A DNA stretch of 64,000 nucleotides from assembly GCA_026413805.1 (NCBI GenBank), contig JAOAKE010000002.1:3599-67598 (forward strand), in the 5' to 3' direction. Position 1 is the first letter of the stretch; every line of letters begins with the position of its first letter. The stretch is from Candidatus Micrarchaeota archaeon (GTDB lineage: Archaea; Micrarchaeota; Micrarchaeia; Anstonellales; Anstonellaceae). The position numbers and the translations under genes were made by a program. Below the pieces are notes generated by a model. That model did not search any database and was not told the origin of the DNA. It worked only from the letters and a program-made list of their open reading frames with translations. Positions 18,765 to 20,107 of the stretch are shown piece after piece.

Positions 18765-19097
18765 ATGTTTAAGAAGGAGAAAAAACCGATTGGCCTAGAT
18801 GTCATCTATGCCAGGCAAATAAGGGAAGCTATGAAGAGGCATGAAAAGGAAATGAAGAGTAAAGAGGGCTCTTTTGGAAAAAAGGTTGTTACCACCGTTC
18901 TGTTGTCGGCGATTGGGGCTGGAATCGCCTATGTTGCCATGAGAAAGAAAAAGGAAGAGCCGCCGCAGATACCCGCAGGCACTCCGAAGCAGGTTGATGT
19001 GGCAAAAAGGCAGGGCGAGCTTCCTCCAGAAGTGCTCAAGCAAGTTGAAGCAAACCCCAAAATAAACCCGTTTTCCTTAAAAGAGCGTGAAAAGTGA
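18765..19097 (+). CDS. small single-TM protein (110 aa) between rpoA' and rpoA''. Its C-terminal tail resembles the N-terminal helix of RpoA''.
   Basis: TM helix [19 protein letters not shown]. The tail [12 protein letters not shown] resembles the A'' N-terminal LPEDILEEVKK-like motif. Its stop overlaps the GTG start of rpoA'' (GTGA). Confidence 0.4.
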
Positions 19098-20107
19098 GGG
19101 TGGGCATGACTTCGAAAAGCAAGAAGAACATAGAGGTTGGGGAGGCAGTTGGCATTGTGGCTGCCCAGTCCATAGGCGAGCCGGGCACGCAGATGACCAT
19201 GAGAACCTTCCACTACGCAGGCGTAGCTGAACAGGTGCCCACAGGCCTTCCTCGCTTAATTGAGCTGGTAGATGCGAGAAAGGAGCCAAAAAAGCCAATA
19301 ATGGACATCTTTTTGAAGGAAGAGTATGCCTCAAATGAGGCGAAGGCAAAAGAGCTTGCAAAGGCTATTGAATGCACCACTGTTGACAAGGTTGCCTATG
19401 TTGAGGAAGACTTTGACGAGAAGAAGATAATAATAACCCTTGAGCCGTCTGAGCTTGAAACCGAAGGAGTAAAAGCAGAGGAGGTATTCCGCAAAGTCAA
19501 GGCAGTTGCAGGCTCTCATGTAGAGCAAAAGGACAATATAATAACTGTAAAAGCACCAAACGCCTCACTTCGCACCATTCGGCGCCTTACCAACAAGCTT
19601 CGGCAAGTCCAAATCAAAGGGATAAATAAAATCAGCAGGACATTGGTGGTAAAAGGGAAAGATGGCAAGTATTTCATCAGGACAGCAGGCTCAAACCTTG
19701 CAGAGCTTATAAAAAACCCCCATGTTGACGCCTCCAGGATATACACCAACGATGTGCAGGAAATAGCGCGAGTATTTGGGATTGAGGCAGCAAGGAATGC
19801 CCTTGTGCGAGAAATAAAACAAGTCCTTGACATGCAGAACTTAAACGTGGATGTGCGCCACTGCATGCTGCTTGCAGATGCAATGACCATGGACGGCGAG
19901 ATAAAGTCAATAGGCAGGCACGGGCTTTCAGGCGAAAAGGCAGGAGTGCTTGCGCGCGCAGCATTTGAAGAGACAGTCAAGCACCTCATAAATGCCGCCA
20001 CAAAGGCAGAAGATGACAAGTTAATCGGCGTGACAGAAAACATAATCGTAGGGCAGACTGTCCCTGTTGGCACAGGGCTTGTGAAATTGAAAATGAAGCT
20101 TGGCTGA
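19094..20107 (+). CDS. rpoA2: RNA polymerase subunit A'' (N-terminally short; GTG start or ATG at 19106)
   Basis: [31 protein letters not shown] signature. Only about 13 aa precede it, versus 50-70 aa in other archaea. Confidence 0.88.

Follow-up and report, generated by a model that had tools for sequence, protein, structure and literature searches.

What is a small gene doing between the two genes that encode the halves of the largest RNA polymerase (RNAP) subunit of an archaeon? The question is raised by a stretch of 64,000 nucleotides (nt) of contig JAOAKE010000002.1, here called the window, which comes from a Candidatus Micrarchaeota metagenome-assembled genome (MAG). In it, an open reading frame (ORF) of 110 amino acids (aa) separates rpoA' from rpoA'', and RpoA'' (referred to below as A'', as RpoA' is referred to as A') is short at its N-terminus. 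Few archaeal gene arrangements are as conserved as the rpoH-B-A'-A'' block, and an earlier note on this DNA had suggested that the ORF might be an N-terminal piece of A'' split off by a historical frameshift, the by-product of a sequencing error, or the upstream part of a product made by −1 slippage of the ribosome. Comparison with related loci, all of them metagenome-derived like the window itself, leads us to a different answer. The ORF is, on balance, probably an independent, translated and clade-restricted orphan gene, and neither a piece of rpoA'' nor the upstream half of a frameshifted fusion. Judged by its sequence, the locus is an operon-architecture variant that carries an undescribed small-protein family outside all curated families.

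A family of small genes between rpoA' and rpoA''

The extra 110-aa gene with a hydrophobic helix that the earlier note had placed between rpoA' and rpoA'' is confirmed by the ORF coordinates and by a Kyte-Doolittle mean over 19 residues (KD) of 2.01 for residues 41-59, a transmembrane (TM)-like value. A word-indexed homology search with the single ORF returned only the ORF itself. Exhaustive phmmer searching of 1.84 billion representatives recovered five small homologues (100-118 aa, E-values of 8e-14 to 1e-4), and a later profile search added three further members. The resulting family, previously undescribed, comprises 10 clusters or members of 100-131 aa. None of the 10 reaches the cut-offs of Pfam or NCBIfam, and no PHROG or Protein Data Bank (PDB) family was matched either; the PDB-wide profile search returned nothing at E ≤ 10 except the TM segment of MscL, and no RNAP chain. 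No known archaeal RNAP subunit or transcription factor (Rpo3-13, TFS, Spt4/5 and the like) is thus matched by a family model at its cut-off or by a solved chain. Paralogues of the small ORF were not found elsewhere in the window, and a literature search found no work addressing this locus.

The family is tied to one genomic position. The closest relative by A'' (locus L081, 85% identity) has an ORF of 113 aa at the same place, the C-terminal 40 residues of which align with the tail of the window ORF, and the order A' - ORF - A'' is found in all six members for which the context could be read (the window, L081, L087, L088, L089 and L090). Motifs resembling a Shine-Dalgarno sequence precede the ORF in five of these six loci, the exception being L090, where the ORF start overlaps A'. 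Apart from L090, the members for which DNA is available begin 9-73 nt past the A' stop, and in L087, L081, L088 and L089 a GGAGGT, AGAGGT or AGGTG lies within ~8 nt 5' of the ORF. The ratio of nonsynonymous to synonymous substitution rates (dN/dS) is 0.36 for L088 and L089, the closest pair with a usable dS. Given its homologues, the A' - ORF - A'' synteny, the conserved motifs described below, the Shine-Dalgarno sequences and this dN/dS value, we take the gene to be real. Since it has its own Shine-Dalgarno sequence, starts 9-73 nt from the A' stop and, in five of six loci, is separated from the A'' ATG by 5-9 nt, it is probably co-transcribed, and probably translationally coupled, with both halves of the largest RNAP subunit.

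Two motifs characterise the family: an N-terminal DPAV..A..L..AK, and a C-terminal block, G[TS]KKQ[IV]D[IV]A[RK]xQG[DE]LPPxVxxx[VI]xxNxxIxP(R)TLK, which is the best-conserved part of the alignment. Between them, seven of the 10 members carry a hydrophobic segment (KD of 1.34-2.01, the six besides the window ORF ranging from 1.34 to 1.96) with RKKxEEPP after the helix; in the window ORF the helix is bordered on either side by strongly basic residues, KK before it and RKKK after it. The other three members (P0128, which is the L081 protein, P0130 and P0131) have no hydrophobic stretch (KD at most 0.41) and carry a conserved polar segment, SSAFTRGxDQxSL..AEKAAAKPW, instead of the helix, while both flanking motifs are kept. 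A simple frameshift was considered as the source of this polar sub-family, but the central DNA cannot be aligned and the idea is therefore unsupported. An AlphaFold2 model built from the 10-sequence alignment is all-helical and of low confidence (pLDDT 55; helices at residues 11-31, 45-60, 74-82 and 88-96), its best-predicted part being the C-terminal block, with two short helices at 74-82 and 88-96 (pLDDT 60-70).

The short RpoA'' and its start codon

That A'' is abbreviated relative to other archaea, as the earlier note stated, is borne out by two comparisons. Only 11 residues precede the GEAVG motif when counted from the ATG at 19106 (15 when counted from the GTG at 19094), versus ~55-64 residues before that point in solved archaeal A'' chains, with residues 6-9 of the window protein aligning to their residues 55-64. 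The match to TIGR02389 (411.9 bits) covers profile positions 37-367 of 367. By both measures ~50 N-terminal residues are absent.

The shortness is, however, no local oddity, as the earlier note had treated it: the relatives have the same short A'' throughout the phylum. We compared ~160 Micrarchaeota A'' sequences, made up of ~120 proteins and ~39 genome loci. The 120 A'' proteins that match best (identities of 58-85%; sources NCBI, ENA, JGI and Logan) measure ~330-336 aa, any greater length being due to internal or C-terminal insertions, and a canonical-type N-terminal extension was found in none of these ~120 nearest proteins. In a dozen homologues whose N-termini were read, the protein starts ~10-14 residues before the GEAVG-type motif. 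For the second set 80 genome loci were fetched, and the A' stop and the A'' core were placed in each; in the ~39 Micrarchaeota loci 7-19 residues precede the GEAVG-type motif. Most of these loci leave 6-70 nt from the A' stop to the A'' match, too little for a gene, versus ~140-170 nt in Methanosarcinales, Methanoperedens, Methanobacterium and the other non-Micrarchaeota loci of the set, where the additional DNA encodes the canonical segment M..s.k.I.E....L.LP..[VI]...L..EL....[VI]T..Q..EI[IV].....Y....[IV]E. The adjacency of rpoA' and rpoA'', which the earlier note took to be usual, thus holds for most Micrarchaeota too, with an insert in four or five of ~40 genome loci. Because ~160 sequences share the short N-terminus and most loci have no intervening gene, the truncation appears to be older than the small ORF; on the sequences compared, the phylum Micrarchaeota as a whole normally has a short A'' N-terminus.

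This distribution bears directly on the suggestion that a sequencing or assembly indel cut A'' and made a spurious ORF upstream of it. The region does look unusual and its source is a MAG, and nothing further speaks for an error. The same architecture is present in independent NCBI, ENA, JGI and Logan assemblies, and an equally short A'' in ~160 independent sequences, which excludes a sequencing error, and likewise a recent frameshift, as the cause of the truncation. We regard the indel as scarcely credible.

Two other A'' proteins depart from the usual form in different ways. In L064 (positions 2568-3000; Thermoplasmatales MAG CAZWQV010000017.1), A'' has an N-terminal extension of at least ~100 aa, of low complexity and rich in K, T and E (MAAKKQTKKATKADEKEPKKQVKKK...), the opposite extreme to the truncation in Micrarchaeota. 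P0089 has a K/E-rich C-terminal tail of ~90 aa.

Where A'' starts decides what its junction with the small ORF looks like. The longest possible rpoA'' ORF (19094-20107) opens with a GTG which, in the sequence GAAAAGTGA at 19089-19097, overlaps the TGA stop of the small ORF, and the earlier note had read this overlap as a gene junction. The GTG at 19094 is almost certainly not the start, and the ATG at 19106 would be. The NCBI model of the window A'' (P0002, identical) is 333 aa long and begins at this ATG, relatives' A'' begin M[AT][ST]KSKKQ[IV]EVGEAVG at the equivalent ATG, and GAGG at 19096-19099 is a Shine-Dalgarno sequence 6 nt 5' of it. Relatives have GTGAT-type motifs 4-7 nt 5' of their own A'' ATG. 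All six family loci have an A'' ATG with a Shine-Dalgarno-like motif before it, and a conserved N-terminus from that ATG. The A'' frame of the window contains a TGA at 19088-19090 and is open only from 19091, one codon before the GTG. No equivalent overlap of GTG and stop occurs at the relatives' junctions, which together with their N-termini and the NCBI model led us to reject the GTG. The overlap appears to be an artefact of longest-ORF calling, because the NCBI model, the relatives' ATG and the Shine-Dalgarno sequence place the start at 19106; the actual layout would be stop, 8 nt, ATG.

The junction also invites a reading as a programmed −1 frameshift at A-AAG (19091-19094) beside the TGA, yielding a fusion of the TM protein with A''. 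The A'' frame of the window is indeed the −1 frame of the small ORF, a slip of the lysine tRNA from AAG to AAA would lead into GTG AGG GTG GGC ATG, and in E. coli A-AAG is known to be prone to shifting. The signal of dnaX-type programmed frameshifting is A AAA AAG, and A-AAG beside a stop is shift-prone in bacteria; the window likewise has A-AAG before a TGA, with the downstream gene in the −1 frame. Unlike such sites, it has no full heptamer and no conservation in homologous loci, the frame varies, and the downstream gene initiates independently.

These differences emerge from the comparison of the window with L081, L087, L088, L089 and L090. In this order, the distance from the ORF stop to the A'' ATG is 8, 5, 5, 66, 9 and 8 nt (that is, 5-9 nt in five of the six), and relative to the ORF, A'' is in frame 2, 2, 2, 0, 0 and 2. 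The ORF stops are four TGA, one TAA and one TAG, and the last codon and stop read AAG TGA in the window, CAG TGA in L081, GAG TGA in L087, CCC TGA in L088, CCC TAA in L089 and CGG TAG in L090. A-AAG thus precedes the stop in the window only, one of six loci. A slippery motif common to the six junctions was not found, nor was a canonical X XXY YYZ heptamer. Where A'' is in frame 0, as it is in two of the six, stop codons intervene; A'' carries a separate Shine-Dalgarno motif, and its N-terminus, initiated at ATG, is conserved; and most Micrarchaeota produce the same short A'' with nothing upstream of it. With spacers, frames and stops varying in this way, the −1 slippage proposed in the earlier note is effectively refuted by the comparative junction data and, in our estimate, very improbable. 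The six junctions give no sign that a fusion of the TM protein with A'' is under selection.

The long spacer of L088 has a structure of its own. These 66 nt (731-796) hold a perfect hairpin (CATCGAGC TTGC GCTCGATG); AGGAGG comes after it and precedes the A'' ATG. The interval from A' to the small ORF in the same locus has a GC-rich hairpin of a similar kind (TTTGCGCAGA..TTGGCCGCGAGGCCAA), and there is one also in L014.

Origin of the small ORF and possible role of its product

Small ORFs at the junction occur in one sub-clade of Micrarchaeota, which is Anstonellaceae-like and has A'' at least ~75% identical to that of the window. In a neighbour-joining tree of A'', the loci of the family (the window, L089 and L081) form one late clade, so that the family is monophyletic. 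Sister to it are lineages with a different family of 68-73-aa ORFs (L083 and L086), and the next clade out unites L084, which has an unrelated 77-aa ORF, with four ORF-less lineages (L082, L001, L002 and L014). At the base of the sub-clade is L037, with an unrelated 97-aa TM ORF. In the outgroups L003, L004 and L006, as in ~30 Micrarchaeota further away, the junction is empty. No homology of the family to the junction ORFs of L037, L084, L083/L086, L007 or L029a-c was detected with hidden Markov models (HMMs) or with BLASTP (E = 0.82). A resemblance that can be seen by eye between junction ORFs ('DVSPEAVEAL...PFGM') has no HMM or BLASTP signal and is not claimed here.

Gene fission is a known theme for RNAP large subunits and for DPANN genomes, and it supplies an alternative to an independent gene: the last ~35 aa of the ORF, which are conserved, would correspond to the N-terminal helices of canonical A'', displaced and now reassembling with A'' in the polymerase as a separate polypeptide. 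The tail that the earlier note had compared with the A'' N-terminal helix (ELPPEVL…) is present in the translation, within the conserved C-terminal motif, and the ORF is directly 5' of the A'' core and colinear with it, at the close spacing given above. From LPP, the tail (~25 aa) and the A'' N-terminus (~11 aa) add up to ~36-38 aa, versus ~41-43 aa from LP to GEAVG in canonical proteins. With the canonical A'' N-terminus (TIGR02389 positions 1-36; residues 1 to ~55 of 4qiw_C, 8cro_C and 2pmz_C) the ORF shares its position 5' of the A'' core, a helix-capping motif of the (D/E)LPPxV... type followed by an amphipathic helix, and roughly the total length. Unlike it, the ORF encodes a separate polypeptide, adds an N-terminal motif and, in most members, a hydrophobic helix, is confined to a late-branching sub-clade, and has no similarity that is significant in unbiased searches.

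Profile comparisons give a very small signal in favour of this idea. When the family was compared by hhalign with 34 canonical N-termini, the best local alignment was the proposed register (family 81-106, canonical 17-42; P = 0.013), which pairs dLPPxV... with LPxxI..., and two of 300 column-shuffled family alignments scored as high; the hhalign probability, however, is 3.4%. An artificial fusion of the ORF with A'' lengthens the TIGR02389 match to profile position 2, with a gain of 1.8 bits. On a canonical HMM of the Methanosarcinales type, the fusions of five of six members reach positions 5-14 and gain 3.2 to 5.5 bits, and that of L090 gains 0.5 bits without any extension. Empirical p-values for the gains range from below 1/300 to 0.13 per member, the members not being independent of each other. 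Nominal p-values are moreover inflated, given that the hypothesis sprang from the similarity itself.

Unbiased searches point the other way. The PDB-wide search with the family profile finds no RNAP chain, as stated above, and the fusions do not extend the alignments to the Pyrococcus, Thermococcus and Sulfolobus A'' chains, most scores being slightly lower than with A'' alone and none higher. In a blind scan with the HMM of the canonical N-terminus, which covered all 1474 six-frame segments of the window, the ORF is not listed at E ≤ 10; nor was a relocated canonical A'' N-terminus found elsewhere in the window. Of the resemblance proposed in the earlier note, then, a weak profile register is seen, and neither the blind nor the PDB search recovers it; that the small ORF is the split-off N-terminus is not demonstrated, and alignments to solved A'' chains do not reach into the tail. 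The split genes for archaeal RNAP large subunits (A'/A'' and B''/B') have the same operon context as the small ORF. In these known splits, however, the adjacent fragments are jointly homologous to the whole protein, whereas for the small ORF homology to a part of Rpb1/beta' could not be demonstrated.

The point to which we give most weight is phylogenetic: the family is nested deep in a phylum that was already without the segment. As neither the segment nor the ORF is present in ~35 other Micrarchaeota lineages, outgroups included, fission would require survival in one twig and many independent losses. We therefore consider it unlikely that the tail is the displaced A'' N-terminus. If the gene is instead an independent one, it would have been born or inserted at the A'/A'' junction after the loss of the A'' N-terminus, and the junction in this sub-clade would be a permissive slot for small ORFs.

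As to what its product does, the functional parts are probably the soluble N- and C-terminal motifs, since these are kept in the sub-family in which a polar segment replaces the hydrophobic helix. As both persist where the hydrophobic helix is absent, they probably act in one compartment, the cytoplasm, which would make a role in protein-protein contacts plausible. RNAP is the sole partner that the context suggests, because production of the protein would keep pace with that of A' and A''. The mechanism that we prefer, although tentatively, is that of an RNAP-associated accessory protein that docks via its C-terminal helices, with the hydrophobic helix serving as a membrane anchor or as a buried helix.

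About equally likely is that the product is a young, fast-evolving, small membrane or hydrophobic protein unrelated to transcription, which occupies a permissive and highly expressed slot in the rpo operon; a role at the cell surface or in host interaction in DPANN symbionts is one possible example. The divergence, which is very fast, speaks for this reading, as does the hydrophobic helix of most members. It also agrees with the presence of non-homologous junction ORFs in close relatives (L037, L084, L083/L086), their absence from others (L082, L014, L001 and L002), and the unrelated inserts at the junction of L029, L011 and L027. Against it, the synteny and tight coupling with A' and A'' are strict in every member examined, the conserved parts are the soluble motifs, the helix is dispensable in one sub-family, and the strongly basic residues on both of its flanks are awkward for a simple single-pass topology.

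Several observations weigh against an independent gene whose product works with RNAP. Evolution is very fast for a polymerase partner: between L081 and L089, A'' is 94% identical (dS 0.42) and the small ORF 30%, and their central DNA is not alignable. Sister lineages have non-homologous junction ORFs or none, which a permissive slot explains better than an essential subunit would. The phylogeny is a simple neighbour-joining tree of a single protein. The poor AlphaFold2 model allowed no fold to be assigned. Beyond the family, the search of 1.84 billion proteins returned at E ≤ 0.001 only P0126, a protein of 7,311 aa matched by a TM-like stretch alone, and the ORF-less genomes had no full search for a copy elsewhere.

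A stronger version of the RNAP-associated reading would make the product a lineage-specific RNAP subunit, whose conserved C-terminal helix-turn-helix docks, by descent or by convergence, on the peripheral surface bared by the loss of the A'' N-terminal helices, and whose hydrophobic helix, in most members, tethers the polymerase to the membrane of the ultra-small cells. We think this quite unlikely. A parallel in concept is Rpo13, a small helix-turn-helix subunit specific to the RNAP of Sulfolobales, the structure of which was reportedly described by Korkhin et al. in 2009 (PDB 2waq family). Rpo13 is an earlier case of a helical protein that is small, poorly conserved and restricted to one lineage and is attached to archaeal RNAP, and like the small ORF product it has ~100 aa and charged flanks. 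The two show no sequence similarity at E ≤ 10 in the PDB-wide search, however, and the likeness is conceptual, the association of the small ORF product with RNAP being hypothetical. Rpo13 is not known to have a hydrophobic helix or to be encoded between A' and A''.

Whichever role applies, an entire DPANN phylum has trimmed ~50 residues off the N-terminus of A'', and in one of its sub-clades the A'/A'' junction seems to have become a slot of rapidly turning-over small ORFs, one of which was kept long enough to form a recognisable family. What looks in the annotation of a MAG like a frameshifted or split polymerase gene is here genuine biology and not error. Should the product bind RNAP, a lineage-specific subunit would have been added, for which Rpo13 is the precedent, and the phylum would offer a natural experiment on the dispensability of the A'' N-terminal region. 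Should it not, the locus would be a clean case of the birth and turnover of orphan genes within an essential operon.

Operon layout and other inserts at the junction

The region is a classical archaeal operon for transcription and translation, with the gene order rpoH-rpoB''-rpoB'-rpoA'-[ORF]-rpoA''-L30e-NusA(KH)-S12-S7, followed by EF-2 (Table 1). The rpoA' product matches Pfam Rpb1 domains 1-4 and the first 66 positions of domain 5, and its C-terminus (...EEIRREEHEA*) is kept in relatives. The small ORF starts 12 nt past the A' stop.

Table 1. Positions in the window of the rpo genes, the small ORF and their sequence signals.
Feature	Position	Strand	Remarks
rpoH	12570-12800		
Split rpoB (B''/B')	~12809-16182		
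rpoA' (RNAP subunit A' / Rpo1N)	16197..18752	+	851 aa as longest ORF; TAA 18750-18752
Shine-Dalgarno GGAGGT of small ORF	18753..18758	+	6 nt 5' of ATG; ideal spacing
Small ORF	18765..19097	+	110 aa; identical to NCBI hypothetical protein N3G22_00625
Hydrophobic TM-like helix of small ORF, residues 41-59	18885..18941	+	RKKKEEPP comes next
Conserved C-terminal motif of small ORF, residues 72-106	18978..19082	+	From family alignment
GTG opening the longest rpoA'' ORF	19094..19096	+	Overlaps TGA stop 19095-19097; probably unused as start
Shine-Dalgarno-like GAGGGTG before rpoA'' ATG	19096..19102	+	Direct sequence reading
rpoA'' (RNAP subunit A'' / Rpo1C)	19106..20107	+	333 aa; without the canonical N-terminal ~50 residues

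The junction ORFs of the other lineages differ from one another. Those of L083 (1369-1575) and L086 (2-223) make up a 'GLM' family of 68-73 aa, ending in PFGMxxxQ[IV]xxxGExAxKxxGLM* and matching each other at E = 4e-7. The 97-aa ORF of L037 (2698-2991) has a G/A-rich, TM-like hydrophobic stretch at its extreme N-terminus (KD 2.01), and the 77-aa ORF of L084 (2759-2992, equivalent to L085 12-245) has a weaker one at the same end (KD 1.26). One reading frame is shared by A', the ORF and A'' in L037, with only single stop codons between them.

Inserts of other kinds between A' and A'' are present in other Micrarchaeota. L029 (1831-2955; JAUSHJ010000045.1, Micrarchaeota E14_metabat.bin.186) has an insert of 1.17 kb with three consecutive ORFs of 91, 85 and 132 aa, each beginning MTR..., for which no significant Pfam or PHROG match was found, the best being an Rz-like spanin at E = 0.003; the insert may be a small mobile or viral cassette. 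The inserts of L011 (150-436) and L027 (2725-2990) are non-coding, ~280-290 nt long, and rich in short repeats of the TCGAG/GGTTC type and hairpin-forming direct repeats, the repeat CGCCTGCTGGCTTTTC...AAAATCTCGCCGGCTG occurring twice in L027. They could be elements resembling miniature inverted-repeat transposable elements, or an RNA element. In L007 (2880-3100; JAPLWZ010000124.1), an ORF for a TM-like peptide continues into rpoA'' at its 5' end, and in no frame could the conserved A'' block be found. This junction is probably a misassembly or a deletion of the MAG contig, and it was left out as evidence.

Two further features lie downstream of the junction. In L086, from an Anstonellaceae MAG, an extra ORF of 65 aa with no family match is called between rpoA'' and the L30e gene (1242-1439). 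In L090 (590-3019; JGI 3300081534, Ga0643848_0023549), RpoA'' is 809 aa long and carries an intein directly after GEPGTQM, in the trigger-loop region, with the Pfam domains Intein_splicing and LAGLIDADG_3; the small-ORF member P0130 is upstream as usual.

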